64,000 nt of DNA, taken from positions 5,760,001 to 5,824,000 of the forward strand of contig OZ242311.1 of assembly GCA_965207885.1 (NCBI GenBank). The letters are read 5' to 3'. This DNA is from Candidatus Latescibacterota bacterium (GTDB lineage: Bacteria; Latescibacterota; UBA2968). The translations under genes and the position numbers were made by a program. Under the pieces are notes generated by a model, which worked only from the letters and a program-made list of their open reading frames with translations, ran no database searches and was not told the DNA's origin. Below are positions 1-16,650 of this stretch, piece by piece (within the stretch, counting starts at the first letter, position 1; each line of letters starts with the position of its first letter).

Positions 1-916
1 TACTTTCAGTCCATATATTCCGGCCACTTCGCTTAAGGGTGCAATACGTTCTCTCGCAGAAATCGTCGGAAATGCGGCTGTGCCGTTTCCAAATGTTTCG
101 GTTGATAGCCAACACGCATTGACACGAGCACGCACCAACAAGGGAGGGCGCTCGCAGGTTGACACTGTAGCCAGAACATTTGGCTATTTGCACGGTGGTA
201 ATGTCTTCGCTGGCTTGATACGCTTTAGTGACGCAGAAATCACTAAAGAACCGCTACCGCCAAACCAATGGCCACAGTACGATGTCGCTGTTGGTCAGCC
301 CAAGCAGAGCCATACTGCGTTTTATCCTGGAAATAATCAACGCAAATTCTATCACCACCGCCCCGGTGCCACACAGCTTACCGCACCACACGCTGGCATT
401 ACACAAACGAGTAGCGTACAACCTGCACCTCCCGGCACACGCTTTAACTTTACGGTGAACTTTGCAAATCTACGTAGCTCTGAACTCAACTTGCTACTCT
501 ACTGTCTGATGCTCGAAGAACAGGTCACTGTCACGCTAAGTCCAGCGGCACTTGGTCGTGATGAAGCGCAAGGACCTGTCATATTAGAGGGACCCATGCG
601 CCACAAAATGGGAGGTGCCAAACCTCATGGTGCTGGTTCGGTTCACATTCGTATCACCAGGATGGAGTTGCGTACAGATGCGATGGCACGCTACCGGGGT
701 AACGATTCTATTGAAACCTATAAAGCAGAAGATCTTACAAATGAATTCGAAAATCGTACCGCATCATTTCGGAATCGCACCGATCAAACGATGCAAGAAT
801 TACGCGCCATGTTGATCTATTCTCTCGAGGATCCCAGACAGCCGATACATTATCCGACCTATGGATGGTTTCGAAATGGGAACAATGCAGGCACGCAGTT
901 AAAGCCTACAATATAG
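1..916 (+). CDS. CRISPR RAMP superfamily protein (Cas7 group, type III, probably III-D), 5' truncated by window edge
   Basis: Frame is open from base 2: PYIPATSLKGAIRSLAE (RAMP N-terminal motif), RKFYHH, and G-rich loop HKMGGAKPHGAGSV; lies next to a CARF gene and a CRISPR array. Confidence 0.85.
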   Translation, partial: TFSPYIPATSLKGAIRSLAEIVGNAAVPFPNVSVDSQHALTRARTNKGGRSQVDTVARTFGYLHGGNVFAGLIRFSDAEITKEPLPPNQWPQYDVAVGQPKQSHTAFYPGNNQRKFYHHRPGATQLTAPHAGITQTSSVQPAPPGTRFNFTVNFANLRSSELNLLLYCLMLEEQVTVTLSPAALGRDEAQGPVILEGPMRHKMGGAKPHGAGSVHIRITRMELRTDAMARYRGNDSIETYKAEDLTNEFENRTASFRNRTDQTMQELRAMLIYSLEDPRQPIHYPTYGWFRNGNNAGTQLKPTI

Positions 917-1015: not shown

Positions 1016-2287
1016 ATGAAACTGGCGATGTTAGTGACTGTAGGCGTAGGCAGTACTGTTTCAGATGGGATCGTATTCGCTATTCGGCACAGGCGGCCAG
1101 ATTTTGTGATGTTTCTGACTACGTTGCAAAGTGAAGAACTCACCATTCCCAATCTTCTTGAAACACTCAAGTTAGATCCCGAAGCATATCAATGTCGCCG
1201 TGTAGATGACGAAAATGACGTTGAAAAATGTACGTTGGATTTCATCTCGGTGATCCAAAATCTGAAAAACCGGGGATTTGATTCGGAAGACATTGTAGCG
1301 GATTACACATCGGGTACAAAGGCAATGTCGGCAGGACTTGTGGCCGCTGGTCTTGAGGCCGCCCTTGGAGAACTATCTTATATTGCTGGAGAACGCGATG
1401 AGGGCCGTGTTGTCTCGGGAACGGAACGCGCTATATCGCTTGCACCAAACCGATTGAGAGTACGCCGCATTGTAGAACAGGCCATAACGGAGTTCAACTC
1501 CGTTCGGTTTGATACCTGTCTGGACATGCTGAACCAGATCAAAGAATTGATTCGCCTGCAGAGTGTCAGGCAAGCTGTTAATACATTGCAGGCTCTTGCA
1601 TTGGGATACCGCGCCTGGGATCAATTCGATTACACATTGGCCATGTCCGAACTGGATGGACTGACAGGCAATGCACATCTATCCGAATGGGGATTAAAAA
1701 GAAGGCTGGAACGGCACAAAGGTTTTTTATACCGCGTCAAAAATTTCGATTATGGCGTAGAGCGTGCTACAGACTTGTGGAATAGCGCAGAAAGACGCAA
1801 AGCGGAAGGACGTTTTGATGATGCCGTAGCCCGGCTCTATCGGCTAATTGAATATATCGCACAGGTGCGGCTGTTCCGCAATCACAATGGACTAAAAACA
1901 AGTGATCTGGATATAAGCTTGTTGCCCGAATCCCTGCGTGCTTCGTACAAAGAAAAAGCTGGACGATCTGGAAAAATTGAACTCGGGTTATATGAGAGCT
2001 ATGCGTTGTTAAAAGCTCTCGACAATGATCTGGGCCAGTTCTTCATAGCCAAGTATGATGAAACAGAAGAATTAAAAAAAGTATTAGGGCTGCGAAATCA
2101 GTCGATTCTTGCACACGTATTTGGACCTCTATCTCAAAATGGATGTAAAACGGCCCAGTCTTCTGTACGGTCATTGATGGATCAGGCATTCCGGAACTGG
2201 GAAGACACTGCTCGTGAATCTGCTTTTCCAAAACTGAACACATCTCAAGTGATCCCAAGTCTGAATTTATCAAATGGGTTCGGATAA
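1016..2287 (+). CDS. CARF-HEPN CRISPR ancillary ribonuclease, TIGR02710 family (Csm6/Csx1-like)
   Basis: N-terminal LVTVGVG and DYTSGTKAMSAGL CARF motifs; DDAVARLYRLIE; C-terminal HEPN-like RNQSILAH. Confidence 0.85.
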   Translation: MKLAMLVTVGVGSTVSDGIVFAIRHRRPDFVMFLTTLQSEELTIPNLLETLKLDPEAYQCRRVDDENDVEKCTLDFISVIQNLKNRGFDSEDIVADYTSGTKAMSAGLVAAGLEAALGELSYIAGERDEGRVVSGTERAISLAPNRLRVRRIVEQAITEFNSVRFDTCLDMLNQIKELIRLQSVRQAVNTLQALALGYRAWDQFDYTLAMSELDGLTGNAHLSEWGLKRRLERHKGFLYRVKNFDYGVERATDLWNSAERRKAEGRFDDAVARLYRLIEYIAQVRLFRNHNGLKTSDLDISLLPESLRASYKEKAGRSGKIELGLYESYALLKALDNDLGQFFIAKYDETEELKKVLGLRNQSILAHVFGPLSQNGCKTAQSSVRSLMDQAFRNWEDTARESAFPKLNTSQVIPSLNLSNGFG

Positions 2288-2301
2288 TTTGTAAAAAGAT
2301 G

Positions 2302-2328
2302 ATCAGGATGTATTACCCGGCATTGTGG
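2302..2328 (+). repeat. Orphan degenerate CRISPR repeat just after the CARF gene stop
   Basis: ATCAGGATGTATTACCCGGCATTGTGG aligns with the repeat 5' part ATCAGGAAGAATTACCCGCTTATTGGGG. Confidence 0.6.
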
Positions 2329-2641
2329 CCGATCTCAACGACTGGATAGAGGGAGGTTAAAAGAGACTTCATAGTTTAATTCAAGCCAGTGGATGCGACC
2401 CAGAGACGTTTATCAATGTCATGCTGGCAGTTTGAGCGTGTAGCGAACAACGTGCGTGAGGATTACAGGCATTTCCTCATGTGCTGGTGGGTCGCAAATT
2501 TCTAACCTTTTGCAGGAGTGTGTATTATGAACAGAGCCGTGAATGCAATTTTTCATTTTTGGGAGGATTTTGTATGTCAAAATGGCCTGAGTCGCAAACC
2601 GCCTTGTAATTGCTTGCGAGACAGGAAATAACGCAGACGGT
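2329..2641 (+). promoter_or_regulatory. Probable CRISPR leader
   Basis: Non-coding ~310 bp immediately before the first canonical repeat; repeats end in ATTGAAAC and degenerate toward the far end, implying + strand transcription from this side. Confidence 0.7.
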
Positions 2642-4496
2642 ATCAGGAAGAATTACCCGCTTATTGGGGTATTGAAACTTTGGCACTTCGCCAGCACATC
2701 GCTACCATTGCGTTGGGATCAGGAAGAATTACCCGCTTATTGGGGTATTGAAACAAAAAGAGTGGACGGTATTTTGGAACGAATCGGTGCCAGTCAATCA
2801 GGAAGAATTACCCGCTTATTGGGGTATTGAAACTCTGCTATAGCGGTGAAATGAGGGGACGGCAGGGAGGGATATCAGGAAGAATTACCCGCTTATTGGG
2901 GTATTGAAACCGCGTCCAATCAAAAGATCGGACGCCGCAAAATATAGTTAATCAGGAAGAATTACCCGCTTATTGGGGTATTGAAACCTGAGCAGATCGA
3001 TACCAACATACGCGAACTTGAAGGCGCATCAGGAAGAATTACCCGCTTATTGGGGTATTGAAACTTGGACGAGCCTGTTTTGGCTCCAAATGTTACCACC
3101 ATCAGGAAGAATTACCCGCTTATTGGGGTATTGAAACCGGTTGATCTCGTAGATGAGGTTGGTAAGTTCTACCCAATCAGGAAGAATTACCCGCTTATTG
3201 GGGTATTGAAACGTGAAAATTAACTGCCGTTTCTGCTTTCGCTTTTTCAAGACAATCAGGAAGAATTACCCGCTTATTGGGGTATTGAAACCTGGGTATG
3301 CACATCCGACCAGATGATCGGCACTGGGCCTGATCAGGAAGAATTACCCGCTTATTGGGGTATTGAAACTTGCCGCTGCCGTCGGGGTCAATCGCGTTCA
3401 GGGCGATCAGGAAGAATTACCCGCTTATTGGGGTATTGAAACGGTTGCTGCCTGTCCCAGAATCGCCTGGATTGCCGTGCGAATCAGGAAGAATTACCCG
3501 CTTATTGGGGTATTGAAACCAGGTACATGCGCCCGCGCTAAACAAGTTTTCAGCAGATCAGGAAGAATTACCCGCTTATTGGGGTATTGAAACCTGCCTC
3601 GAACTCTGCCATTTTTTCTTCTGAGATTTTTATATCAGGAAGAATTACCCGCTTATTGGGGTATTGAAACTCCTCGTCATCATCCCCAATCCCTGGGGAT
3701 ATTGATGCTATCAGGAAGAATTACCCGCTTATTGGGGTATTGAAACTTTCTCCATCGCCCTGCCACGTAAAATTCGTGTGTTCAAAAATCAGGAAGAATT
3801 ACCCGCTTATTGGGGTATTGAAACTTTTACAGTTTTTGCTACAGCCTGAAATTCTGCCATTATCAGGAAGAATTACCCGCTTATTGGGGTATTGAAACCA
3901 GTCGATGATGGCATAGCGATCCAACGTCGCGGCGTATCAGGAAGAATTACCCGCTTATTGGGGTATTGAAACCTCAATATGATAAATTATGTTGGCCGCA
4001 TCCCAGTATCAGGAAGAATTACCCGCTTATTGGGGTATTGAAACTTGCATAATTGTCCGATCGGGATTTATATTTTTGGATATATCAGGAAGAATTACCC
4101 GCTTATTGGGGTATTGAAACGGTTATCTTTGTGTCTGGTTGATTTTGGCAAATGCTAATCAGGAAGAATTACCCGCTTATTGGGGTATTGAAACTTTTTT
4201 GAGGGCGGGACTTGCTCCGACCGCACAAAGAAATCAGGAAGAATTACCCGCTTATTGGGGTATTGAAACTATCGAAGGATTTGCGCTTAAACATTTCCTT
4301 TCGGGCTTATCAGGAAGAATTACCCGCTTATTGGGGTATTGAAACCGGGGTTGTCTGATTTATGAGGACTGAATTTGTTGTTATCAGGAAGAATTACCCG
4401 CTTATTGGGGTATTGAAACAGATTCTGCTTCTGGGTCATCTTCGAGGTGTTTTTGGGCAATCAGGAAGAATTACCCGCTTATTGGGGTATTGAAAC
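2642..4496 (+). CRISPR. CRISPR array segment 1: 25 identical 37-bp repeats with ~35-42 bp spacers
   Basis: Repeat ATCAGGAAGAATTACCCGCTTATTGGGGTATTGAAAC from 2642 to 4460-4496; TACCC/GGGTA hairpin and ATTGAAAC handle typical of Cas6-processed arrays. Confidence 0.99.
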
Positions 4497-4501
4497 GAGA
4501 A

Positions 4502-6898
4502 GTAGGGTAGGCTGCTGGCGAGTTACCCAAAGGCACTTTTCCATCAGCCCCCCTCCGAACCGGACGTGATAGTTTCCCATCATCCGGCTCTCCAGTAACT
4601 TTCACCGTTTTGAGGTCGGCCCGCCTCGATGGATGTTGATATGACAGCTTTTACAGACGACAAGTGTTTTTCTGCGTCTTGCTGCCATTTTATGTTTCCA
4701 TCTTGGCTTTTTCTTCCTTCCCGGCTTGTCCACATCCGTTAGTTTGCGTATGTGGTGAACTTCTACTTCTTGCCGAGAACCACATAATTCACATTCTGAT
4801 GCCGTTAAGCGTTGTATTAGCTCGCTACGACTCCAGTATGGTTTTATGTCTTTCAGGCCGTCCTTGATTACCGCGTTCTCTGTGTTGCGTATTAAGGGAA
4901 CCCCTCCAAAGTATGCGATTAGGGGCTTTTTACCTTCTCTTTCTACGGTTACTTGTATGCATTTTCGTGGGCCTCTTGGGGTAATTACTTTACCCTTATA
5001 TTTCCTTGCCGTTTTTCTCACTTGCGATTTGTGTTTATTCGCAAGTGTCTTTAGCAGGGACGTTTGTATGACCCATTCCAATTTGCTCAGTCTCCGTATG
5101 TTGTTTGCGAGTTGGTAGTATTGCACAAAGCCTCTATATTCCCTTTGATAGCGGGATATGATGTCAAAGTCGCTGTCCTGTAACAATTGTGGTCGCGCCT
5201 CTGGCTTCCCGTTTCTCATATAGGTATTGCATCTCGCATCACTTACATCTTTGGGGATGTATAAGCCGAGTCTTCCATTAATGGCCCTTTTCTTAATGTA
5301 GCTGTCCATTTGTGTGTTACTGAAATATCCCTTGATTTCGTATCCTAAAAATCTGGCTCTTTCGGTGGTTACGTGGGTTATTAGGGTCTTTTCTTCTGAA
5401 AGTTCGAGCTTCATATCTTGCAGGAATTTCTTTAGAATTGACTTAATTCCCCTTGCTTCCATTTTGGAGCCTACTAATCCTATTAGGAAGTCGTCAGCGT
5501 ATCTTATGTAGTATATTCTTTTGAAATCGGGGTCGTCTTGGAGTGAGCAGGGTATTTTCTGCATCTTCTGTCTATACTCCTTTGCTTCTTCAAATCGACC
5601 TTTCTTTTTCAGGTGATATACTTTGTTAATCAGATACCTGTATTCAGGGTTTTTCTTTCGGCTTTTTCCTTTTGTGAATAGAGATTTGAGGGTGTTTTCA
5701 ACAAATTTATCCAGTCTATCGAGGTAGATATTTGAGAGTATCGGGCTTACGATTCCCCCTTGTGGCGTTCCGCTCAAGGTGGGTGTGTAATTCCAATTCT
5801 CCATATATCCTGCTTTGAGTAGATTGGATATTAACCGCAGAAATCGGTTGTCTCGGATTTTCTCTCGGAGTATTGATAGTAAGATTTGGTGGTCTATATT
5901 ATCGAAGCACCCCTTAATATCTCCTTCGACAAACCATTTCGTTCCGTTCCACTTTTTGACTGCTTGTAATGCCGTGTGACAGCCTTTATTTGGTCGGAAC
6001 CCGTGAGACAAGCTGCTAAATTGCGGTTCATAATACGCTTCTAATATGGAGCGTATTACTTCCTGCACAAGTTTGTCTGTCCACGTAGGAATGCCTAACG
6101 GTCGCATTTTACCGTTTTTCTTTGGTATATGTGTCCGTCTCACTGGAGTCCATCTGAAGCGTTCATAGCGTATTTGTTCTATGATTGCTTTAATTTTCTT
6201 CAGTGACATTCCATCAACGGTTTCTTCCGTTATACCTTTGGTCATTGCGCCTTTGTTGCGTTGAATGCGACTGTAGGCCCGCAGGTATAGATCGGGGTTG
6301 AACATTTGTCGATAAACGTCTTCAATGGGTAATCCTCTTAAACCTCGATTTCGGATGATACCTAATACTGTTTCGGCGTCTCGCATCTCGCGTGCCTCCT
6401 GTATTATTGTATCCAGTTACCTGTTTTCCTTCGCCTTGTGGACGGCTTTCCCGTCCTCTGACTACTATGAAAACTCCGTTACCATAGGACTCGCGTCCCG
6501 TAGGCAATCCCGTGTTTTTCTGTTGTGGTCTGTATTAGTGTGGGTTAGGTAGTCCACTCATTCCTTAAATGAGCTACATTGCTCATCGTTGGCAGTTCCA
6601 AAGGTTATGGGAAAGCATTGGTTAATTTCCCATAAAACTGATACCGGTATCGGACGACTTTCCGGTAGGGCGAAGCGACCGTCCTTCTGGAATTGGACTT
6701 CGGGCAGTTTAGCTCTTACCATACCACACAGGTCTTGCGGAGCAAATGTTTTTGTCGCCTTCTCTACATTCTCCGCTTTACGAATATGCTATTTTCCCTT
6801 TCGCCTTTCGGTTCCGGTTGATTCGTTGACCTATGGACGTTCCTTTGAGTCCATCCTGATTTAGTCAGGAATACCACATCAGACGCTACACGGCGCAC
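4502..6898 (-). mobile_element. Complete group II intron (IIA, LtrB/ML-like) inserted inside a CRISPR spacer
   Basis: Minus strand starts GTGCG at 6898; domain V GAGAGCCGGATGATGGGAAACTATCACGTCCGGTTCGGAGGGG near 4550-4592; ends ...CCTACCCTAC at 4502; removing it restores a 38-nt spacer. Confidence 0.93.
4602..6386 (-). CDS. ltrA: Group II intron reverse transcriptase/maturase with C-terminal HNH endonuclease
   Basis: RPLGIPTWTDKLVQ, GTPQGGIVSPILSNIYL, YIRYADDF, maturase X domain, CELCG...EVHHIRKL...VCKSCHINIH. Confidence 0.95.
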   Translation of the reverse strand: MRDAETVLGIIRNRGLRGLPIEDVYRQMFNPDLYLRAYSRIQRNKGAMTKGITEETVDGMSLKKIKAIIEQIRYERFRWTPVRRTHIPKKNGKMRPLGIPTWTDKLVQEVIRSILEAYYEPQFSSLSHGFRPNKGCHTALQAVKKWNGTKWFVEGDIKGCFDNIDHQILLSILREKIRDNRFLRLISNLLKAGYMENWNYTPTLSGTPQGGIVSPILSNIYLDRLDKFVENTLKSLFTKGKSRKKNPEYRYLINKVYHLKKKGRFEEAKEYRQKMQKIPCSLQDDPDFKRIYYIRYADDFLIGLVGSKMEARGIKSILKKFLQDMKLELSEEKTLITHVTTERARFLGYEIKGYFSNTQMDSYIKKRAINGRLGLYIPKDVSDARCNTYMRNGKPEARPQLLQDSDFDIISRYQREYRGFVQYYQLANNIRRLSKLEWVIQTSLLKTLANKHKSQVRKTARKYKGKVITPRGPRKCIQVTVEREGKKPLIAYFGGVPLIRNTENAVIKDGLKDIKPYWSRSELIQRLTASECELCGSRQEVEVHHIRKLTDVDKPGRKKKPRWKHKMAARRRKTLVVCKSCHINIHRGGPTSKR

Positions 6899-6931
6899 CT
6901 AATGAGGCTTTGGGTAGATCGTTCACACCCA

Positions 6932-7554
6932 ATCAGGAAGAATTACCCGCTTATTGGGGTATTGAAACTTCGATGCGGGAGCGACCAGCGGCTTGAATCT
7001 TAACAACTGATCAGGAAGAATTACCCGCTTATTGGGGTATTGAAACTATTGCGAGAGAAGATGTTCGCAGATCGAAAGATCCATCAGGAAGAATTACCCG
7101 CTTATTGGGGTATTGAAACTCGAGCTTGACGATGCGCTCTTCGTGGTTGGCGAGACGATCAGGAAGAATTACCCGCTTATTGGGGTATTGAAACGCGTCA
7201 AGGTCTCTGCGTATCTGGTCGAAATTGTCCTCGGATCAGGAAGAATTACCCGCTTATTGGGGTATTGAAACAAATATACTGCACACCACAAGCAGAGCAT
7301 CTCAAAAGTGCATCAGGAAGAATTACCCGCTTATTGGGGTATTGAAACCCGCGGACAGCGAGCGCAAAATCGTCGCAGTCGCTTCTGATCAGGAAGGATT
7401 ACCCGCTTACTGGGGTATTGAAACAATAGCTTGCGGATACACACAGCAAACTCGTTGTAATCATCAGGAAGGATTACCCGCTTACTGGGGTATTGAAACG
7501 AAACTGTCTTACTTTTTTACTTCGGGAATGATTTTGGGATCAGGAAAGATTACC
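6932..7554 (+). CRISPR. CRISPR array segment 2: 8 full repeats (last two variant) plus a truncated repeat at 7539
   Basis: Repeats at 6932, 7010, 7083, 7158, 7235, 7312, 7388, 7463; ATCAGGAAAGATTACC fragment at 7539-7554. Confidence 0.97.
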
Positions 7555-7588
7555 TGTTTACAAAAAGAAAAAGGAGAGGAAACAAGTG

Positions 7589-7809
7589 ATGCCACTAATC
7601 GCGATGTCAGGAAGTGATGCCCTGCTCTTTCTCCTATTCTGGTTCCTGGGATGGTTCGCCTCGCCATTGGGGTGGGCCTTATATACCTCACGCTCAAAGT
7701 GCTACGCAGAATCTCTGAAAAAATAGACAGTCGTCGTGTTAAGGAAACTTCTGCTGACCTTTTGGAGGCACTGGCCGCCAAACTCAAAGAGGACAAAAAA
7801 CAACGATAG
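7589..7809 (+). pseudogene. Small membrane protein, apparently frameshifted (or a 52-aa ORF from 7651)
   Basis: RBS GGAGAGG plus ATG at 7589 gives MPLIAMSGSDALLFLL; a shifted frame continues ILVPGMVRLAIGVGLIYLTLKVLRR...KKQR* to 7809. Confidence 0.4.
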
Positions 7810-7932
7810 TATGCAGTGTAAAATTGAAATACAGAAAGGAATCTCCTTTTAGTAGTTATTTCCCAGAGTATTCAACTGCTTAGACACTCAGACACCTTCA
7901 TTGTCCGAACTCTATCCGATAAGGGTAATATC

Positions 7933-10062
7933 ATGAATAAAATAGTCTCAAGAATCTCCAGATACTTCAGAAGATGGTATGATGAAATCAAGTTGCAGCA
8001 AGTCCTTAAAGAATGCTGTCACGTAGCGCGCGAAGGATACCGGATTGCAAGTGCCAACCTTGATGAAATCAAGATCACTATAGACGGAGAAGTTTCGAAA
8101 TTGAAATCACACCTGGCAACTTTGAATAATGAGAATATCCAAACAGACCACATTGAACAACAGATACAAAAACAACTACAACAAGTGGTGTCAGAACTCG
8201 GCTCTTTGCACAAAAGCCAAGTGCGCCTTCTGGAAGAGAAACACTCACAAATGGACAAATTTTCAATTGCCCTCTTTGGTCGCACACTGGCTGGTAAATC
8301 AACATTGATGGAAATTTTGACCAAAGGCGATGGTTCATCCATCGGAAAGGGAAACCAACGCAATACCCGAGATGTGCGTAGCTACGACTGGAAAGGACTT
8401 AAAATCACTGATGTCCCCGGCGTAGCTGCATCTGACGATGAAGGCCGTGAGGACGAAGAAAAAGCATTCGAGGCGGCTGTGCAGTCGGACCTGGTGCTTT
8501 TCCTCATCACCAACGATGCGCCCCAGGACTCAGAAGCAAGGTGCCTCGCACGCGTGCGATCACAAGGCAAGTCGATTCTGGGTATCTTGAATTTTAAAGA
8601 GGGTCTCAACAATGAGGACGATATACGAATTTTCTTGCGAGATAACTGGTTCAAAAATGATCGGCAGGATATCCACGACATCGTTCAACAGTTCCACGAA
8701 TCTGTGAACAAATATAGCCCGGGGAATCGGATCAGGTTCCTTTATACCCATTTGCTATCGAGATTCCTATCTCAACAGCCGCAGTACAAATCGCACCAGA
8801 ATAATTTGGAACGCGCAAGCCGCTTCGACTATGTCGAACAGCAAATTATATCGGAGGTAATTAACCGGGGAAGATTCCTGAAATGGAAGAGCTTTATCGA
8901 CATTTCCGTAGTTCCAATGCTTGAATTTAGCGATAAATTATTGGAGTTTAGTGCCCAGAACTCATCCAGTGGTAGAATTTTCCTTGGCAAAAGGGACCAG
9001 ACCCAATCATGGTCTGATGGATTTAGCAAAAGTGGCAAAGAACGCATTGATACGTTTATAAAAAAAGAAATGAACTTGCTGCGTGATGAAATTCCGGGAT
9101 TTGCGGAGACCTATTATGACCGATCTAATGCTGGCGATCGCTGGAACCGCTTAGTCAAAAAGCAAGGCATAGAGCGGAAAGCAAAAAAACTTGCTGAACA
9201 GATCCAGAATGAATGTAAATCTGAACTGTCAGAGATTGCACGACAACTTAAATTTGCACTGAATTCCGTCGGTAAATTTGCTGATGATCGCAAAATTAGC
9301 ATGGATTCTATATTCGATACAAAACGCGCCTGGAATTGGGGGACTACAATTCTTTCGGGTGGTCTTGGTATTGCTGCTCTCATTCTTGGTAGCGGTCCTA
9401 TCGGCTGGGTTGCGGCAGCAGTTGCGGGATTAGGGCGCTTGATATCATGGCTTTTAGGTGACCGCGAAAAAAAAGCGAGAAAGCAACGCAAAAAACTCGA
9501 AAAGATGCTCAATAGCGAAGTCAACAAGATAGAAAGTAATATTCGAAAACAGCTCAATGATTGGTTTCAGGGTGTACTGAAAAATCAAGTCGCTGTCCTT
9601 ATCAAAGACCTCTCTACTACCACATCGAATCTCTTCAAGCTGGCAGATGTACAAAGAACTCTGGCCTGGGCACTCAACAAAGGACAGAAACGTCTCCACC
9701 GCGATCTACTCAATGAAGCACTCGATCAACTTGGACAAAAAGATAAAGGGAACCTCATATTAGATATAGCGCGAGTACCAGGACTGGCAATTATGTTATT
9801 GATAGAGCCTAAAACTACATTTCCAAAGGACGTACGCAGGAATTTAGAAAAAATACTTGGAGAAAAGGTTTGGTTCGTAGTCAATACCCGTAACAAAACC
9901 TCAATTCTGGCGCAGGCTATTGGGCACGACTGTGATCGAAGCAAAGTTCGTATCAAATCAAAAATTCAAGTTGCCCATGTTCCGGTAGGAGACCTTAATG
10001 CAGTTGGTATTTCTCGAATCAGACTAGCGCAACAACTGACCGAACTCCATGTGATGAAGTAA
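7933..10062 (+). CDS. Dynamin-like GTPase, LeoBC-like (Eleos defence system)
   Basis: N-terminal coiled coil, P-loop FGRTLAGKST, TRDVRSY, ITDVPG, hydrophobic paddle GGLGIAALILGSGPIGW; paired with a LeoA-like gene. Confidence 0.75.
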   Translation: MNKIVSRISRYFRRWYDEIKLQQVLKECCHVAREGYRIASANLDEIKITIDGEVSKLKSHLATLNNENIQTDHIEQQIQKQLQQVVSELGSLHKSQVRLLEEKHSQMDKFSIALFGRTLAGKSTLMEILTKGDGSSIGKGNQRNTRDVRSYDWKGLKITDVPGVAASDDEGREDEEKAFEAAVQSDLVLFLITNDAPQDSEARCLARVRSQGKSILGILNFKEGLNNEDDIRIFLRDNWFKNDRQDIHDIVQQFHESVNKYSPGNRIRFLYTHLLSRFLSQQPQYKSHQNNLERASRFDYVEQQIISEVINRGRFLKWKSFIDISVVPMLEFSDKLLEFSAQNSSSGRIFLGKRDQTQSWSDGFSKSGKERIDTFIKKEMNLLRDEIPGFAETYYDRSNAGDRWNRLVKKQGIERKAKKLAEQIQNECKSELSEIARQLKFALNSVGKFADDRKISMDSIFDTKRAWNWGTTILSGGLGIAALILGSGPIGWVAAAVAGLGRLISWLLGDREKKARKQRKKLEKMLNSEVNKIESNIRKQLNDWFQGVLKNQVAVLIKDLSTTTSNLFKLADVQRTLAWALNKGQKRLHRDLLNEALDQLGQKDKGNLILDIARVPGLAIMLLIEPKTTFPKDVRRNLEKILGEKVWFVVNTRNKTSILAQAIGHDCDRSKVRIKSKIQVAHVPVGDLNAVGISRIRLAQQLTELHVMK

Positions 10063-10081
10063 CTCAGAAAGGAATCATTTA

Positions 10082-11818
10082 ATGAAAGAAATACATATCC
10101 ATTCATATACAAAAAAAGGAGAGTGTCTGCTTGAGAGAGCAAAACAGGTTCTCCAAGATGCACCTGTCGATAAGGTACGGAACTTTGCACAACGGGTTCC
10201 AAGAGGAATGGCAACTTCTGAAGAAGCCGTTCAGGTAGTCTTTGCCGGTCAATACAGTGCAGGTAAGTCTTCAATTCTCAAGGCAATGACGGGACAAGAA
10301 GATATCGAGATAGGAGCTGGGATTACGACTCGACGGACACAACAGTTTGACTGGAATGGAATCAGAGTAGTGGATACGCCGGGTGTCCATACGGAGTTAC
10401 GACCCGACCATGACAAAATAACGTACGGGGCAATCAGTAAAGCCGACCTCCTGATCTTTGTTATTACCAATGAATTATTTGACTCCCATATAGCAACACA
10501 TTTTAGAAAACTTGCAATTGATCGGGATAAAGCCCATGAAATGCTGTTGGTTGTGAACAAGATGCAGCGATGTGACAAGGGAAATACATCAGCGGCTCAG
10601 GATGTAATTCGGGAAGACCTTCGAAAAGATCTATTGCCCTTCTCTCCAGAACAACTTCGTATATCTTTCTTGGATGCTGAAGACGCTCTCAAGATCCGCA
10701 CAGAGCAGGACGAAGAATACCGCAGAATCTACCATAAAAGAAGTGGTTTTGATGCCTTCATCGATAATTTCAATGCGTTTATTAAAGAAAAGGAATTAAT
10801 CGCACGTTATACAACACCGCTCTACACCCTCGAACAAGTACTACAAGAGGCCCTCGCAGTCGAGCCGAGCGATGACCCTGATGTGGATGCCCTACAAGAG
10901 TTATTAATTCAGCAAAGACGCGCATTATTGGATAGTAAAGCACAGATTTCTCAATCAGTAAAAAATAAAGTCCAACAGACAACAAACAAGATTCGGGAGG
11001 AAGGTCGCAATGTTGCTGATCTGATTCGTGGAAATTCGGACTTTGAGAAAGTTGATCGGGAATTAACGGCTGCCCAAGAGCGCGTTCAAGAATATGTGGA
11101 TTCATTGACGGAACTCGTTCAAGAAACAGTTGAAGAGCATATTAGCGATCTCGCTGAGCGGATAGAGCAAATCGCGGAGAGCGAACTCGCCAAAGAGTTA
11201 CTATCGAGGCTTATAGAAAGACTCCAAGGTCTCAATGTTGATCCAGAGACTCTATCTAAGGTAAAAAAGGGCGCAGATTTCGCCAGCCGATTTGGGAAAT
11301 TCCTCGTTAAGAACTCGTTTAATCCTACGACCTCGACATTTTCCGGATTGTTCAAACTCCACCAGTATTCGGGTACAGCAATGCACGGCATGGTCAAAAA
11401 TATAGGACATTTCTTAGGAAAGTCCTTTAAGCCTTGGGAAGCAGTAAAATGGACGCGTACAATCGCAAATGCTGGTCGAGTTTTGAGCGTAGTAGGCACT
11501 GTTCTAACCATTGTGTTTCAAATTAAAGAAGACGCCGATGCTGCTAATTTAGAACAGGAATTGCGCGAAAGCCGAACTGCTGTAAGGGCGGGATTTAGTG
11601 AGGCCGCCAGTGCAATTGAACTCCATTTTGATGAAGCAACCAACACTTATGTAGCCAAAACCATTGGTCAGCGTCTCGAAGAGGTAGATAAGCAACTTGA
11701 GGAACTCAGAGATATGAAGCAATCTCGTAGCGATCTCTTTCAACAACTCAATGGCCTATTAGAAGATACGAAGGAGCTTATCTCGGAAATGCATGTGTCG
11801 TATAACCCCCATGAATGA
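10082..11818 (+). CDS. leoA: Dynamin-like GTPase, LeoA-like (Eleos defence system)
   Basis: FAGQYSAGKSS, GITT, VDTPG, VVNKM G-motifs, FKPWEAVK motif, coiled-coil C-terminus; 578 aa. Confidence 0.75.
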   Translation: MKEIHIHSYTKKGECLLERAKQVLQDAPVDKVRNFAQRVPRGMATSEEAVQVVFAGQYSAGKSSILKAMTGQEDIEIGAGITTRRTQQFDWNGIRVVDTPGVHTELRPDHDKITYGAISKADLLIFVITNELFDSHIATHFRKLAIDRDKAHEMLLVVNKMQRCDKGNTSAAQDVIREDLRKDLLPFSPEQLRISFLDAEDALKIRTEQDEEYRRIYHKRSGFDAFIDNFNAFIKEKELIARYTTPLYTLEQVLQEALAVEPSDDPDVDALQELLIQQRRALLDSKAQISQSVKNKVQQTTNKIREEGRNVADLIRGNSDFEKVDRELTAAQERVQEYVDSLTELVQETVEEHISDLAERIEQIAESELAKELLSRLIERLQGLNVDPETLSKVKKGADFASRFGKFLVKNSFNPTTSTFSGLFKLHQYSGTAMHGMVKNIGHFLGKSFKPWEAVKWTRTIANAGRVLSVVGTVLTIVFQIKEDADAANLEQELRESRTAVRAGFSEAASAIELHFDEATNTYVAKTIGQRLEEVDKQLEELRDMKQSRSDLFQQLNGLLEDTKELISEMHVSYNPHE

Positions 11819-11834
11819 CTTGAGATTGTCTTAA

Positions 11835-12172
11835 GTCAAGAAAGGATTACCCGACTACTGGGGTATTGAAACTCATCACCGAGACGTTCTTTGGTTGAAT
11901 ACTTCCCTTCGAATCAGGAAAGATTACCCGACTACTGGGGTATTGAAACGTATCTGTCACCATTACGATATAGTTGTTTCCATCGGCAATCAGGAAGGAT
12001 TACCCGCTTACTGGGGTATTGAAACCAGACCTCAGCAGCTTCGTTTGCATCAACGACGATTATCAGGAAGGATTATCCGACTACTGGGGTATTGAAACAT
12101 GTCCGCCTCGCAGAAGTTCATCTCGTTCATCTTCCGAAGATCAGGAAGAAATTACCCGACTACTGGGGTATT
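11835..12172 (+). CRISPR. CRISPR array segment 3: 5 variant repeats (first 5'-degenerate, last lacking GAAAC), 4 spacers
   Basis: Repeats at ~11835, 11913, 11989, 12062, 12140, mostly of form ATCAGGAAGGATTACCCGACTACTGGGGTATTGAAAC. Confidence 0.95.
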
Positions 12173-12291
12173 TACCATTTTTAGGGTTGTGCTTGTAGTG
12201 TAGCCTCAGATTCTCTATCTTTTGAATAGATCTTAATACAGAATACAGAGGATGTGCGTCCAACCACGATATGCTATGGGAGGAGATGCCA

Positions 12292-12555
12292 ATGAACCAG
12301 CTAACATTAAGCGGATTTGACAAAGAATTGACCGATAGAATCCGGCATTTCGCAAACCAGGAGGGTATTTCGCTAAATCAAGCCGCGTTGAGACTTCTGC
12401 GCGTTGGGGCCGGTCTCAAGCAATCAAAGGATAGCGGCGACACCGTTGGATCTTCCCTGGACCATCTAATTGGAACCTGGACGGTCGAGGAAGCTGAGGT
12501 ATTGAATAATGCCGTAAAAGAATTGGAACAAATTGACGAGTCTATGTGGAAATGA
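12292..12555 (+). CDS. Antitoxin (ribbon-helix-helix, FitA/VapB-like)
   Basis: MNQLTLSGFDKEL...GISLNQAALRLL, DHLIGTWT; ATGA overlap with the PIN toxin. Confidence 0.8.
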   Translation: MNQLTLSGFDKELTDRIRHFANQEGISLNQAALRLLRVGAGLKQSKDSGDTVGSSLDHLIGTWTVEEAEVLNNAVKELEQIDESMWK

Positions 12556-12950
12556 AAATTCTCCTTGACACCAATGCGTATTCACATCTGAAGCGAGGGC
12601 ATCGCAGGGTTGCGGCGTTAGTACGCATGTCCGAGGAAATTTTCCTGTCAGCTATTATCATTGGCGAATTGCTCTACGGCTTTCGGCAAGGCTCGCGCAT
12701 TGACCGGAATATTGAGGAACTTAAAGCCTTCCTCAACAACCCCTATGTCACATTTGTACCTATAAGTTTCGCAACAGCCGAACATTACGCGCAGATTGCA
12801 ATGTCGTTGAGAACCAAGGGGCGTCCCATCCCGTCAAACGACATTTGGATCGCTGCTCAAGCAATGGAGACAGGTGCCAATCTCGTTTCGTCTGATCAGC
12901 ATTTTTCAGAAATTGATGGTCTCGCGTGGACATACGTCTCGACTGAATAA
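12552..12950 (+). CDS. vapC: VapC PIN-domain toxin
   Basis: ILLDTNAY, GELLYG, IPSNDIWIAAQA, LVSSDQHF. Confidence 0.93.
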   Translation: MKILLDTNAYSHLKRGHRRVAALVRMSEEIFLSAIIIGELLYGFRQGSRIDRNIEELKAFLNNPYVTFVPISFATAEHYAQIAMSLRTKGRPIPSNDIWIAAQAMETGANLVSSDQHFSEIDGLAWTYVSTE

Positions 12951-12978
12951 CATTTTCCTTTTCTAACAAAAATGAATC

Positions 12979-13233
12979 ATGACAAAGCCAAAACTATATG
13001 AAGAAGTGGCAATAGCGCGCAACATACCGGAAGAAAATCTAAAACAGGGTGATGTTGCTGTCGTGGTCGAATATGTACCGCATCCTACGGGTGGAGAAGA
13101 AGGAGCAATTTTAGAGATTTTTAATGCCATTGGCGAATCCGTCGCTGTGGTCACAGTGCCTATCTCTGCGATTAAATCGCTACATGCTGATCAAGTACTG
13201 ATGGTGCGTGAGAGAACGCCTGCAAAATTTTAG
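12979..13233 (+). CDS. DUF4926-like small protein
   Basis: LYEEVAIARNIPEENLKQGDVAVVVE...LEIFNAIGESVAVVTVP pattern. Confidence 0.75.
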   Translation: MTKPKLYEEVAIARNIPEENLKQGDVAVVVEYVPHPTGGEEGAILEIFNAIGESVAVVTVPISAIKSLHADQVLMVRERTPAKF

Positions 13234-13349
13234 ATCAGGAAGGATTACCCGACTACTGGGGTATTGAAACCTTTCGCTTGACTAATAATAATATAATATA
13301 AAACCCTTCCGAATCAGGAAGGATTACCCGACTACTGGGGTATTGAAAC
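13234..13349 (+). CRISPR. CRISPR array segment 4: two variant repeats, one AT-rich spacer
   Basis: ATCAGGAAGGATTACCCGACTACTGGGGTATTGAAAC at 13234 and 13313. Confidence 0.93.
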
Positions 13350-13360
13350 TGTGCCTGGAT

Positions 13361-13394
13361 GTGCATTTTTGCACGGATGCGTGCATTTCTGCAC
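13361..13394. promoter_or_regulatory. Tandem GTGCA-N4-TGCAC palindromes, putative sigma54 enhancer (UAS)
   Basis: GTGCATTTTTGCAC (13361) and GTGCATTTCTGCAC (13381), 20 bp apart, ~110-140 bp upstream of a -24/-12 element. Confidence 0.6.
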
Positions 13395-13499
13395 GCCTGT
13401 TTTCCTCTGGTGAACGCCTATTTGAGATCTTTTTGCAAAAAAAACCTCGAAAAAGGAACAAAAAAAGAAAATCCTCATTTTTTTGAGGATTTTTTTCTT

Positions 13500-13515
13500 T
13501 GGCACGCTTTTTGCA
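13500..13515 (+). promoter_or_regulatory. Sigma54 (-24/-12) promoter upstream of CAPP-cas1-cas2
   Basis: TGGCACGCTTTTTGCA matches TGGCAC-N5-TTGCW. Confidence 0.75.
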
Positions 13516-13531
13516 TATAAATAGGGCGTTC

Positions 13532-13569
13532 GTCAGGAAGGATTACCCGATTTATTGGGATCGTGAAAT
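13532..13569 (+). repeat. Orphan degenerate CRISPR repeat
   Basis: GTCAGGAAGGATTACCCGATTTATTGGGATCGTGAAAT resembles the variant repeat. Confidence 0.8.
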
Positions 13570-13606: not shown

Positions 13607-13701
13607 TTGGTTGAAATTAAACCGCCAAAAAGAGTAACATAAGCCACAGGTGTCCCCCACATGTGGTTATATTTTTCTCTAAAAAAGAAAGGAATCTCCC
13701 C

Positions 13702-15630
13702 ATGACAACCCCTGCCATTGAACAGTCGTCTCCCACATCTCTGGTAGATACCCTCTGCGAAAAAGCACAGGTGCTATTAGAACAAAACAATATAGATGGC
13801 GTGGAGACATTGGCTTCGGAAGCCTGTGCGCGCGATCCGGCGTGCAATCGCGCACATCAATTGATGCTCCGCGTAGCCCTCATCCGAGACGAACAGGACA
13901 AAGCACAAACATTGCTCAATCGGTGGCGCGATTTGCCGGTAGATGATGCATTTGGTGAATGGGGTGTACTCGCAGAAGAAATGAACGACATACAGTCAGC
14001 CGTTGAAATCTATCAGGCGCACCTATCTCAGTGCCCTGACGATGCCAAATCCCTATTTGGACTGGCAATGCTACACGCAGACCGCAATGAAACGGGCCTC
14101 GCGCAATCGCGCTTGCAAACCCTCATCCAGCACCATGCAGACCATATAGAGGGCATCTTTGAACTCGCCCGCCTGTACGAAGAAGACGGCATGATGGGCC
14201 TCGCCCAAGAACTCTACGCACGGGTGCTCGAACTCGATCCGGACCATGCGGGCGCACTTGCGGGTAAACAACTCGTCGGCGCACAATTGCAAACATCCCA
14301 AACCTTACCAGATGCAACCATCAAAAATCACCCCGATAGTGCCGCCCTGATCCTCAGGCTATTTGCCGCGCGAAAAGACGTGTACGCACGCCAATGGATC
14401 GATGAAGACGGAAAAACCGGCTATGTCCCCGTGCGCGAACCCCTCACAGAAGACGCGATCCAATCCCACCTCCAGGGAGATACAACTGTAGGCGTCTATC
14501 CAATTTTTGACCGGGACAAAGCACAATTTTTGGCCCTGGATATCGACATAAAAAAAGAAGCCCTCAACACAGCGCAGCAAAACAACACCTTAATGGATGC
14601 GTTGCGCGAACAAGTATGCAAAGACATCCGGCGGGTCTGCGCGGGCTTCGCCTCCCTCAACCTCCCTGTTCACATCGAAGACAGCGGAAACAAAGGCGCG
14701 CATATATGGCTCTTCTTTGAAAAACCCATCCGCGCCTGCGACCTCCGCGCATTTGGTCGTGCTTTTGTAAAGCGATTTGGCCCAGCATCAGAAGATTTGC
14801 AGTGGGAGTGGTTTCCCAAACAAGACGCCGTTGGGGAAGATGAACTGGGCAACCTGATCAAACTACCACTCGGCATCCACCGCAAAACAGGACGACGCGC
14901 GTTATTTATCGACACAGAAGGACACGCGCTCGCAGATCAAGATCGGGTATTGTGTGACATCAAACCCATAAACACACAGGCTTATGACCATGCGGTCTCC
15001 CGCTTGGGCGGAGGAGAGACCCACACGCCCCTGAAACAAGTTGATCTGAAAAAAGCATTTCCAGAATTTCAACCCCTTATGCAAGGCTGTGCAGTCATTC
15101 GCGCACTCACAGAAAAAGCCTTTGCAACCGCCCATCTGGTACACATCGAACGCCATGTTTTGAAATGCGTATTCGGGCATCTCGACGACAAGGGACGCGC
15201 CTTCTTACACGCGGTAATTGGCGCGTGTGCAGATTACAAAGCCGAAGTAACCGATTATCAGATCGAACGCCTGCACCCGCATCCCATTGGCTGTCCGAAA
15301 ATCCGCAAACACCTGCCCGACCTCATTGAAACCGTCCCCTGCAACTGCGAATTTGACCTGCCAGAAGGCGGGTATCCCTCTCCCTTGCTACATATCGACC
15401 CGGCATTTACCGCTGGCATGGGACGTGTGGATCAACCGCAAAACCGCGAAATCGTAGATCGCTACATCACACTGCGCCAGCAAGCCGCACAGGTAATGGC
15501 CGACCTATCGCGTACAGAAGATGAAATGCGCGACATATTGCGCGACCGCAAAGGCAAAATCTCCACAGGCGTCTGGGTAGTCACAGCGGATGACGCGGGA
15601 CGATTGCAAATAGGCATTGAGGCGGTGTAA
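13702..15630 (+). CDS. CRISPR-associated primase-polymerase (CAPP): TPR + AEP + Cys-rich C-terminal domain
   Basis: TPR repeats; ALDIDI, EDSGNKGAHIWLFF, FPKQD, GNLIKLPLG AEP motifs; C-terminal Cys cluster; directly upstream of cas1-cas2; start inferred from RBS. Confidence 0.88.
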   Translation: MTTPAIEQSSPTSLVDTLCEKAQVLLEQNNIDGVETLASEACARDPACNRAHQLMLRVALIRDEQDKAQTLLNRWRDLPVDDAFGEWGVLAEEMNDIQSAVEIYQAHLSQCPDDAKSLFGLAMLHADRNETGLAQSRLQTLIQHHADHIEGIFELARLYEEDGMMGLAQELYARVLELDPDHAGALAGKQLVGAQLQTSQTLPDATIKNHPDSAALILRLFAARKDVYARQWIDEDGKTGYVPVREPLTEDAIQSHLQGDTTVGVYPIFDRDKAQFLALDIDIKKEALNTAQQNNTLMDALREQVCKDIRRVCAGFASLNLPVHIEDSGNKGAHIWLFFEKPIRACDLRAFGRAFVKRFGPASEDLQWEWFPKQDAVGEDELGNLIKLPLGIHRKTGRRALFIDTEGHALADQDRVLCDIKPINTQAYDHAVSRLGGGETHTPLKQVDLKKAFPEFQPLMQGCAVIRALTEKAFATAHLVHIERHVLKCVFGHLDDKGRAFLHAVIGACADYKAEVTDYQIERLHPHPIGCPKIRKHLPDLIETVPCNCEFDLPEGGYPSPLLHIDPAFTAGMGRVDQPQNREIVDRYITLRQQAAQVMADLSRTEDEMRDILRDRKGKISTGVWVVTADDAGRLQIGIEAV

Positions 15631-15631
15631 T

Positions 15632-16633
15632 GTGTCCGTACTCTACGTCACAGAAACCGGTGCTCAGGTACGACGCGAAGGCGAGCGATTGACCGTGTGG
15701 AAAGGCAAGAAAAAACTCCACACATCATCTGCGTATGATCTGCACCAGGTGGTCATATTTGGCAACATCGGAATAACACCTGCTGCCATGCACACCGCGC
15801 TGATGCAGGGCATTGACCTCGTACTTCTCAGCACCACGGGCAGTTATCGCGGGCGACTGGTGGGACCACAGGGCCGCAACATCATTCTGCGACAAATGCA
15901 ATATCGCCGCTACGAAGACGAAGATTTTCGATTGGGTGCTGCGCGGGGATTTGTATCGGGAAAAATCCGCAACATGCGTACCCTCATAATGCGCCTTGCT
16001 CGACGTCGAAACCGGGACATTGCCCACACCGCACAGCGACTGCGCGCACTCTTAAAACAGGTCGATCGCATAGACAATGCCGATGCGCTACGCGGAATCG
16101 AAGGCGCGGCAACCGCGACTTACTTCGGTGCGCTGGGTCAATTTTTGCCCTCTGCATTTCCCTTTGTCAAACGCACGCGACGCCCGCCCAAAGACGCGGT
16201 CAACTCCATGTTGAGCTTTGGCTATACGCTACTGTCTTCGGACCTGGAATCGGCTGTCTTGCGCGTGGGATTAGATCCCTATATCGGTTATCTGCATCTC
16301 GTGGATTACGGACGTCCCTCGCTCGCCCTGGACATGATGGAAGAATTTCGCCCGATAATTGTAGATGCAATGGTACTGGACCTGCTGAATCACGGACAAA
16401 TCAAAAAAGAGGACTTTGAACAACGCGACGGAGGCGTATTTCTGTGTGGCGATGGACGAATGCAGTTAATTCGCGCCTATCAGGATCGCGTCGCAACTGA
16501 AGTTCAATATGTACAACCCAGTGGACAGGTACAAAAAGTGCCGTATCGCCAGTGTTTTGAATTGCAAGCCCGCCGTCTCATTCGCCTGTTACGCGGTGAA
16601 GACGCGGCATATCTGCCGTTTTTAATTCGATAA
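15632..16633 (+). CDS. cas1: CRISPR-associated endonuclease Cas1
   Basis: LRGIEGAATATYF, RRPPKDAVNSMLSFGY, GYLH, SLALDMMEEFRP. Confidence 0.97.
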   Translation: MSVLYVTETGAQVRREGERLTVWKGKKKLHTSSAYDLHQVVIFGNIGITPAAMHTALMQGIDLVLLSTTGSYRGRLVGPQGRNIILRQMQYRRYEDEDFRLGAARGFVSGKIRNMRTLIMRLARRRNRDIAHTAQRLRALLKQVDRIDNADALRGIEGAATATYFGALGQFLPSAFPFVKRTRRPPKDAVNSMLSFGYTLLSSDLESAVLRVGLDPYIGYLHLVDYGRPSLALDMMEEFRPIIVDAMVLDLLNHGQIKKEDFEQRDGGVFLCGDGRMQLIRAYQDRVATEVQYVQPSGQVQKVPYRQCFELQARRLIRLLRGEDAAYLPFLIR

Positions 16634-16650
16634 ATGTAGAGACCAATACA

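Follow-up and report, generated by a model that had tools for sequence, protein, structure and literature searches.

The window analysed here is a stretch of 64,000 nucleotides (nt) from the genome of a Candidatus Latescibacterota bacterium (contig OZ242311.1, positions 5,760,001 to 5,824,000), a genome assembled as a single 6.2-Mb contig and designated G000; coordinates without a prefix are positions in this window. It contains a CRISPR array of a type III system, in which one spacer, spacer 25, is split by a full-length mobile group II intron that lies antisense to the array. An identical copy of this intron interrupts a small chromosomal gene, and spacer 25 is probably a fragment of a foreign homologue of that gene, into which the intron has homed. 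Here, we describe the array and its intron, compare the two insertion sites, and consider whether the repeat next to the intron could give rise to a guide directed against the intron itself.

The main array contains 33 copies of a 37-nt repeat (ATCAGGAAGAATTACCCGCTTATTGGGGTATTGAAAC; genome-wide fuzzy search), with 25 copies before the insertion and 8 after it. Repeats 1 to 25, which are identical, and spacers 1 to 24 occupy 2642..4496 on the + strand. Repeats 26 to 33 and spacers 26 to 32 follow at 6932..7499 (+) and form the trailer end, with two substitutions in each of the last two repeats. The 31 spacers other than spacer 25 are 35-42 nt in length. Repeat 25 (4460..4496, +) ends with the 8 nt ATTGAAAC (4489-4496), which we take to be the common 8-nt Cas6 handle and which would become the 5′ handle of a guide processed from this repeat. 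The array is read on the + strand, because the cas operon lies upstream on the + strand, the repeat ends with ATTGAAAC, and the degenerate repeats are found at the far end.

The genes of the system are found on both sides of the upstream border of the window. The 18 kb upstream of it (L004) encode, in order, a CARF-sigma54 activator, Cas6 (Pfam, 69.4 bits), a CARF protein, Cas10, and a series of RAMP proteins. The best matches of these RAMP proteins among curated NCBI models are Csx10 (E 8.4e-40, 137 bits, below the cut-off of 177), Csx7 (twice; 132.8 bits, above the cut-off of 108), and Csx19 (23.5 bits, below 35). Cas10 is a protein of 539 amino acids (aa) that matches Pfam Cas10-Cmr2_palm2 with 62.9 bits (cut-off 27) and NCBIfam Cmr2 with 76.1 bits (slightly below the cut-off of 79.4); its GGDD motif is intact, and an HD region is not visible. 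The last effector gene ahead of Csm6 is the C-terminal part of a TIGR03986-like type III RAMP protein (2..916, +), the open reading frame (ORF) of which matches Pfam RAMPs (E 1.1e-07) and NCBIfam TIGR03986 (E 2.5e-24; its 86.7 bits fall short of the curated cut-off, 161). It is followed by a Csm6-type protein with HEPN and 6H domains (1016..2287, +; Pfam Cas_Cas02710 with 98.4 bits and Csm6_6H with 32.3 bits, each exceeding its cut-off). Judged by these matches, type III-D is the best-fitting subtype, though the Csx10 and Csx19 models score under their curated cut-offs. The region between csm6 and repeat 1 (2288..2641, +) is presumed to be the array leader from its position, and a promoter scan gave no promoter-like match within it.

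Downstream of repeat 25, the array continues with GAGAA (4497..4501, +), the leader-side 5 nt of spacer 25, which correspond to the intron 3′ exon TTCTC on the minus strand. The + strand then reads GTAGGGTAGGCTGCTGGCGAG..., where the 2397-nt intron is entered from its 3′ end (4502..6898, -). The intron starts with GTGCGCC and ends with CCTACCCTAC, and its RNA ends (5′ GUGCG, 3′ CCUACCCUAC) fit the GUGYG / AY rule, with a bulged A near the 3′ end. Domains V and VI, branch-site region included, are located at 4502..4592 on the minus strand by RF00029 (68.3 bits, where the gathering score is 40, E 2.5e-11, full model 1-77). Because of this placement, the sequence past GAGAA is the exact complement of the intron 3′ end. 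The Rfam D1-D4 class models gave no match to the intron at E 1 or better. The intron encodes a protein of 594 aa (4602..6386, -) without internal stop, containing reverse transcriptase, maturase, and HNH endonuclease domains (Pfam RVT_1 129.5 bits, Intron_maturas2 67 bits, AI2M-like_HNH 49.5 bits, all at or above cut-offs).

Beyond the intron, the trailer-side 33 nt of spacer 25 (6899..6931, +) form the intron 5′ exon on the minus strand. Excision of 4502-6898 joins the 5 and 33 nt into a spacer of 38 nt, which falls inside the 35-42 nt range, and a target duplication is absent. As a result, 1 of 32 spacers is occupied, spacer 25 is split, and the seven trailer spacers are now 2.4 kb from the leader side. 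This geometry is a direct consequence of the insertion rather than a statistical signal. The original prediction, made from the window alone, had read the junction as repeat 25 followed by the handle ATTGAAAC, GAGAA, and the complement of the intron 3′ end, and had described the intron as antisense to a type III array. The coordinates and the sequence reading proved correct, and so did the orientation, with domains V-VI on the minus strand, the array on the + strand, and the cas10, cas6, and csx genes upstream. Elsewhere in the genome, a different group II intron-like sequence (L003, G000:C1:4083319-4083967) shows 63% identity over 649 nt of the ORF region.

Spacer 25 and the homing site of the intron

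The second copy of the intron is located at G000:C1:3116209-3118605, is identical at 2397/2397 nt, and has an intact ORF. It lies in ordinary chromosomal surroundings (AcrB-type efflux, FdhD, rpoN, an LptA-like gene, and CTP synthase) and splits a 91-codon gene, the spliced ORF of which equals protein P0006 of a public collection exactly. An uninterrupted allele of this gene in a same-genus relative (L178) matches the joined home exons at 38/38 nt, thereby fixing where the intron begins and ends. The full element was found in G000 only within a set of 168 phylum genomes, and the nine other genomes with a match contain lower-identity relatives (69-95% over mostly short stretches). A scan of genome contigs with the intron protein yielded one close relative, a 5′-truncated 743-nt copy with 93% identity (L126), which belongs to a metagenome-assembled genome titled Candidatus Latescibacterota. 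In addition, contigs from runs X5 and X15 (the latter an RNA library) contain the intron 3′ end joined to home-type exon sequence. The identical copy, the sole full element in the phylum set, and the home-type exon joins argue for a young and rare intron that has this gene as its home and that appears to be currently mobile.

A further relative of the intron is present in runs X15 and X18 (both RNA libraries). It is shorter by 1750 nt, including the whole ORF (joint at 4604/6355, with AA at the joint), and lies in a different site, the 5′ exon end of which can be aligned to 6899-6909. Its sequence marks it as a derivative without the ORF, from another organism or another site. Habitat or expression cannot be read from the small word shares of the RNA runs.

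Exon 1 of the home gene is located at G000:C1:3118606-3118795, and its homologues include L007-L125 and L177-L186. A large protein collection holds 194 homologues of the host protein, 34-111 aa long (typically 80-110 aa), and the family is spread over bacteria and an archaeal-looking contig, where it lies beside RadA. Neither Pfam nor PHROGs has a family for exon 1 or for five full-length members. In a 42-member alignment, the invariant columns are P4, A15, V55, N56, D57, P59, K60, A61, V64, and L65, and the stretch V55-L65, the most conserved motif of the host protein, is the one split by the intron. The protein is predicted to fold into four strands and a long C-terminal helix (mean predicted local distance difference test score, pLDDT, 74). 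A Foldseek search of the PDB had no match with E 0.001 or better (best 0.05), and the Z scores from VIA-align, 6.6 with Borrelia Pur-alpha and 5.3-5.4 with PC4 proteins, are under the tool's own confidence level. These models give no more than a hint of a PUR/PC4-like family, and binding of single-stranded nucleic acid by its members would be a guess.

Read in the intron sense, spacer 25 is TG GGT GTG AAC GAT CTA CCC AAA GCC TCA TTA GTT CTC, which translates to [L]GVNDLPKASLVL. The corresponding stretch of the home gene is ..KVNDIPKAVLVL.., and the intron sits inside the same Val codon at both sites. The spacer spans exactly the VND(I/L)PKAxLVL motif, and it is alike to the home site at 26/38 nt, with the same residue in 9/12 codons of the intron-sense frame. 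Five of the 12 nt differences are synonymous and fall in four codons (GAT/GAC, TTA/TTG, GTT/GTG, CTC/TTG), and the remaining seven are found in three codons that are variable across the family. The home-copy BLAST alignment runs on for 28 nt into 6899..6931. At the other end, the 3′ exons differ beyond position +5, where the array continues with the repeat and the home gene with AATAAAGC. The sequence shared by the two insertion sites is the spacer part, and the home site has no repeat.

The likeness is also visible at the level of the whole family. A family profile, built solely from 120 homologues among the matches listed and found with exon 1 alone, scores 10.7 bits on the reverse frame of spacer 25 (E 0.0043 for 222 spacer-frame peptides), with 1.0 bits for the runner-up. 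None of 20,000 random 38-mers reached 10.7 bits (maximum 7.8). The back-translated pattern VNDLPKAxLVL matches at least 119 metagenome stretches, among them 116 family genes and 3 occurrences of one unrelated sequence, and 26 of the matches listed encode exactly the VNDLPKASLVL of the spacer. A 7-residue motif pattern has matches in 47/168 phylum genomes, with 0 for a reversed control, and among the matches listed all those in other genomes bear the VND(I/L)PKA signature. All 16 matches that were translated, the set for which CRISPR context was checked, are family genes (10 in genus relatives and 6 in paralogue cassettes). In G000 the motif pattern matches twice, and the second match is spacer 25.

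The intron contains candidate elements for the recognition of both sites. A candidate exon-binding site 2 (EBS2; intron nt 296-301, CUUUGG; 6598..6603, -) can form 6/6 Watson-Crick pairs with positions -15..-10 of both insertion sites. A candidate delta + EBS1 segment (intron nt 358-367, ACACUAAUAC; 6532..6541, -) could form 10 pairs (9 Watson-Crick) with positions -7..+3 of the home site, and 6 contiguous Watson-Crick pairs with positions -5..+1 of the array site. Both were chosen for their complementarity, and the phylum relatives of the intron available for comparison of the EBS regions are of 69-79% identity only. A contiguous delta-EBS1 with EBS2 some 60 nt upstream is the layout of IIA introns, and the arrangement seen here is probably IIA-like.

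We consider it likely, with a probability of roughly 0.8, that spacer 25 represents part of a foreign homologue of the gene in which the intron resides, and that the intron retrohomed into the target site retained in it. In this scenario, a fragment of a foreign family gene would have been taken up as a 38-nt spacer, keeping the conserved motif and hence the DNA target site of the intron. The intron would subsequently have retrohomed into spacer 25, landing there because the spacer copies its homing site. Such an origin would also explain the orientation. The available excerpt of PMC8632793 describes an antisense spacer bias of type III systems and crRNAs (CRISPR RNAs) complementary to the transcript, and the array strand of spacer 25 is indeed the complement of the family gene mRNA. 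Since a useful type III spacer is antisense to mRNA and the intron inserts in the sense direction of the gene fragment, it would end up antisense to array transcription.

A mobile element is a plausible source of the spacer. The DNA matches of 31/38 (L051, L058, and L103, among the matches listed) lie in an archaeal-looking chromosomal context beside RadA. Within the genus, six extra family copies occur in 5/20 other genomes, all of them in an orf134-RadC-paralogue-Rad52-like cassette. A DUF1232 gene is also present in four of the five other cassette loci, the L180 cassette lies near a methylase-HNH gene and a Rep-like helix-turn-helix (HTH) gene, and the paralogue cassette was not found in G000. 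By its gene content, the cassette is plausibly a variable module that resembles part of a mobile element; it would show the kind of invader and not the source of spacer 25. As a source of the spacer, the in-genus paralogues were rejected, matching it at 24-26/38.

A predicted guide against the intron

With the intron in place, the array transcript would carry antisense intron RNA, and Cas6 cleavage in repeat 25 could yield a handle-bearing RNA with a mostly anti-intron guide. The predicted cut would release AUUGAAAC-GAGAA-GUAGGGUAGGCUGCUGGCGAG..., a hypothetical chimeric crRNA (4489..4540, +) that consists of the handle, GAGAA, and the complement of domain VI. The anti-intron stretch past GAGAA takes in the complement of the CCUACCC bulged-A segment of domain VI. 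A product of 37-49 nt would be 83-88% anti-intron and would span the 3′ strand of domain VI, including the bulged A. We infer this crRNA from the geometry of the locus.

The first terminator-like site on the + strand is at 4978, about 480 nt into the insertion, and the next repeat lies 2435 nt 3′ of repeat 25, so that the usual repeat-flanked intermediate cannot form. Transcription in the opposite direction has no evident starting point: none of the 11 promoter-like matches in 2250-8000 is on the minus strand (0/11), in a weak scan that gave 11 sites against 9.4 expected and is thus uninformative on promoters. On that strand, every repeat (e.g. 4489-4472) gives a GC-containing hairpin of 5 bp, after which comes a T-rich run. 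These hairpins make up 31/34 terminator-like hits, against 6.1 expected, and may hinder antisense transcription of the array. As sense transcription of the intron is not evident here, the array copy is probably a dead end. None of the contigs from runs X15, X18, X19, and X5 spans the array flanks (4200-4490, 7013-7100), which leaves these runs uninformative on array transcription and on an intron-free array.

The RNAs that such a guide could meet differ in their anti-tags. In the array copy, the 3′ exon is TTCTC followed by GTTTCAAT, and its sense RNA would carry GUUUCAAU, complementary to the handle at 8/8 positions. The original prediction that a sense transcript of the resident copy carries a fully complementary anti-tag was therefore right. 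The home pre-mRNA continues past the intron with UGUUG AAUAAAGC, an anti-tag that fits the self pattern at 2/8 positions. Unspliced home RNA would therefore be non-self to the guide, and any expression of the home gene would carry the risk of activating Cas10 and Csm6. The excised intron, which lacks an anti-tag and leaves guide positions 1-5 unpaired, could therefore be cut without alarm. Judging from these sequences, a working guide would risk autoimmunity rather than bring about quiet silencing.

Partial texts of three studies bear on these steps. For LdCsm, a target without a 3′ anti-tag is bound while Cas10 stays off (PMC7214462). In type III-A, tag-proximal mismatches lower Cas10 activity, and cleavage goes on in paired segments, being stopped within the mismatched segment only (bioRxiv 10.1101/369744). 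In another type III system, the length of the crRNA is set by the complex, and the 3′ ends are trimmed by an unknown exonuclease (PMC12464536).

Weighing the explanations

Several observations speak against a foreign family gene as the origin of spacer 25. The exact protospacer for the rejoined spacer was not found in viral or metagenome contigs, the degenerate motif pattern has 0 matches in viral contigs, a phage collection is without a family member (0/50,697 records), and plasmids give only 3 distant family matches. The best DNA identity is 31/38 among the matches listed (at least 119), where the pattern itself fixes about half of the positions, and the in-genus paralogues (24-26/38) are no nearer to spacer 25 than the home gene is. 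Part of the likeness, namely the intron-binding sites IBS1 and IBS2 and the positions read by the protein, is needed at any insertion site and is not fully independent evidence. The EBS elements were assigned by complementarity without covariation, and an alternative EBS1 candidate lies in a hairpin loop (intron nt 277-284). Moreover, the case is a single instance in one assembly. As for a pre-insertion allele, 13/20 other genus genomes have arrays of the same repeat family, in which there is no intact spacer 25 and the trailer spacers are unshared; identity of the trailer region to these arrays is at most 72% and confined to the repeats.

If the likeness reflected the requirements of insertion only, the spacer could be unrelated to the host-gene family and the insertion a chance ectopic retrotransposition. 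Group II introns do insert at low frequency at partial EBS1/EBS2 matches, and the array site keeps 12/16 candidate pairing positions. However, the likeness reaches past the pairing region, its differences follow a coding-type pattern (5 synonymous differences next to 9/12 identical residues), its profile score is matched by 0/20,000 random 38-mers, and spacers make up only about 1.5 kb of the 6.2-Mb genome; we therefore regard a chance landing as highly improbable. Less likely again is an assembly artefact, in which the repeated 2.4-kb element would have been misassembled into the array. Two identical 2.4-kb copies are a classic source of such errors, but a misjoin would not yield spacer halves that together have a normal length (38 nt) and match up with the home site codon by codon, and the intron ends are exact at both junctions in a genome that forms one contig.

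Retrohoming into a retained copy of the homing site thus being the preferred account of the insertion, it may be asked what the insertion does. The original prediction saw in it a trap similar to a PIWI-interacting RNA (piRNA) cluster, in which a mature type III crRNA from repeat 25 would guide Cas7 cleavage of intron RNA and thereby dampen the intron family. The required geometry is exactly present, Cas6, Cas7-type RAMPs, and Cas10 are all encoded, and the + strand is without a terminator-like site before 4978. The orientation would follow from the homing-site origin and not from luck, so that the same geometry would recur in type III arrays. The excerpts cited above lend further support, with a crRNA length set by the complex and 3′ ends trimmed elsewhere (PMC12464536), mismatches that stop RNA cleavage only locally (bioRxiv 10.1101/369744), and a target without anti-tag that fails to switch on Cas10 (PMC7214462), as would suit silent cutting of the excised intron. 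On the other side, the distance of 2435 nt to the next repeat would make the 3′ end dependent on host nucleases acting on a very long precursor, and only some 30-40 nt beside repeat 25 could serve as a guide, unlike in a piRNA cluster. Within the intron particle, domain VI has structure and is bound by protein. An efficient guide should also be costly, given the 2/8 anti-tag of the unspliced home pre-mRNA and its partial pairing at guide positions 1-5, and the home copy, 100% identical and with its ORF intact, gives no sign of lost activity. This identical copy shows no sign of counter-selection on the intron and is mute on RNA levels and on silencing in trans. Overall, we find it doubtful that the locus acts as a trap, and a loaded guide with a measurable effect is likewise unlikely. 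More speculative still is the general proposal that RNA-targeting arrays are built-in traps, in which the homing site is kept, the intron is always antisense, and a chimeric crRNA together with a long antisense precursor would lead to cleavage of intron RNA in trans while the Cas10 alarm is avoided.

Known systems and neighbouring features

Retrohoming is known from mobile group II introns whose protein has an En domain (Ll.LtrB-type IIA). The insertion described here resembles this process in being exact, at a site that could pair with the candidate EBS2, EBS1, and delta, and without target duplication, in its sense orientation to the target gene sequence, and in having its home site in the most conserved motif of the host protein. 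It differs in its recipient, which is a 38-nt spacer (a stored copy of a foreign homologue) rather than a gene, in the lack of a useful mRNA to splice from, and in the antisense position of the intron relative to local transcription.

Other elements are found in CRISPR arrays as well. According to the available parts of the respective texts, Tn7-like transposons target CRISPR repeats (PMC11837452), and prophages integrate in CRISPR loci of Streptococcus pyogenes (bioRxiv 10.1101/2020.10.09.333658). As described there, these elements likewise occupy a spacer region and leave the neighbouring repeats intact. Tn7-like elements read the repeat, which leaves any unit open to them, whereas here the content of one spacer would be recognised, by a retroelement guided by RNA-DNA pairing. 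Repeat-directed insertion of the Tn7-like type does not fit the present intron, with a home site that has no repeat and 26/38 nt shared in the spacer.

The trap model of animal piRNA clusters, as given in the excerpt of PMC10588112, shares with the present locus an element that lies antisense in a region transcribed and cut into guides, which would match the element. The differences from what is described there are that guide production and silencing are here no more than predictions from the geometry, that just the stretch beside one repeat could be loaded, and that the insertion was probably directed by mimicry of a homing site and not by random landing. With respect to anti-tag discrimination in type III systems, the sense transcript of the array copy, with GTTTCAAT and 8/8 complementarity, would carry the classical self signal. 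The transcripts that matter (those of the home copy and the excised intron) are without that anti-tag, and the anti-tag studies, as far as their excerpts go, used III-A effectors (bioRxiv 10.1101/369744; PMC7214462), whereas the system here fits III-D best.

Retrohoming into copies of a homing site, elements in CRISPR arrays, and the idea of a piRNA trap are each already known. In the full-text literature, including the accessible parts of PMC12479173, bioRxiv 10.1101/2021.04.16.440249, PMC4143802, and PMC8632793, we found neither a group II intron reported in a CRISPR spacer nor a spacer reported to act as a homing site, most subscription journals being outside this search. What we have not found described is the combination of a spacer that serves as a homing site with an orientation set by the logic of RNA targeting.

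A spacer is a faithful copy of foreign DNA and, as such, can stay recognisable to another sequence-specific mobile element, which would leave immune memory open to invasion by an element that homes to the remembered sequence. The orientation rule predicts that homing elements in type III and type VI arrays are biased towards antisense, and that the split spacers match home sites, and it turns the trap idea from a one-locus coincidence into a general and testable prediction. The locus also offers a system for asking whether a type III effector loads a guide that has an upstream repeat only, and how such a guide treats structured, self-encoded RNA. If the trap were true, the element would have been brought under control by an immune record of the site at which it lands. 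If repeat 25 makes nothing, the locus would still represent a clean natural case of retrohoming into a 38-nt decoy and would show how arrays lose spacers.

Several other features of the region can be mentioned briefly. The gene at the head of the type III-D locus (L004:6325-8031) encodes a fusion protein in which a CARF-type domain (Cas_NE0113) is joined to a sigma-54 activator AAA+ domain and a Fis-type HTH, and which may link cyclic-oligoadenylate sensing with sigma-54 transcription. In 7500-13560, downstream of the main array, its repeat recurs in diverged form in array remnants at about 11836-12172 and 13234-13349, and in a degenerate copy near 13530. Between these remnants lie a pair of dynamin-like GTPase genes (7933-10062 and 10082-11818) and a PIN-domain toxin gene (12546-12950) with a small ORF ahead of it. 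The region 13663-16932 includes a gene for a 655-aa protein that combines TPR repeats with an archaeo-eukaryotic primase domain of the TOTE type (Pfam AEP-TOTE, 158 bits). This primase-polymerase (Prim-Pol) gene overlaps the start of cas1 (15617-16633), which is followed by a cas2-like ORF (16651-16932); CRISPR-associated Prim-Pols are a known kind.

Four spacers towards the leader side of the main array match the chromosome of their own host, in part or as composites in some cases. Spacer 5 (2988-3027) does so at 40/40, inside a 500-codon + strand ORF that, by eye only, we take to be DnaA-like. It lies in sense orientation to this ORF, the only long one there, and should therefore be harmless to an RNA-targeting system. 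Spacer 4 (2911-2950) has a 31/31 match at a hairpin, and spacer 3 (2834-2873) a match of 25/25. Spacer 12 (3520-3556) is tiled exactly by a 20-mer and a 17-mer from two loci of the chromosome, the 20-mer being antisense to a 700-codon ORF and the 17-mer lying just upstream of the apparent 5′ end of 23S rRNA.

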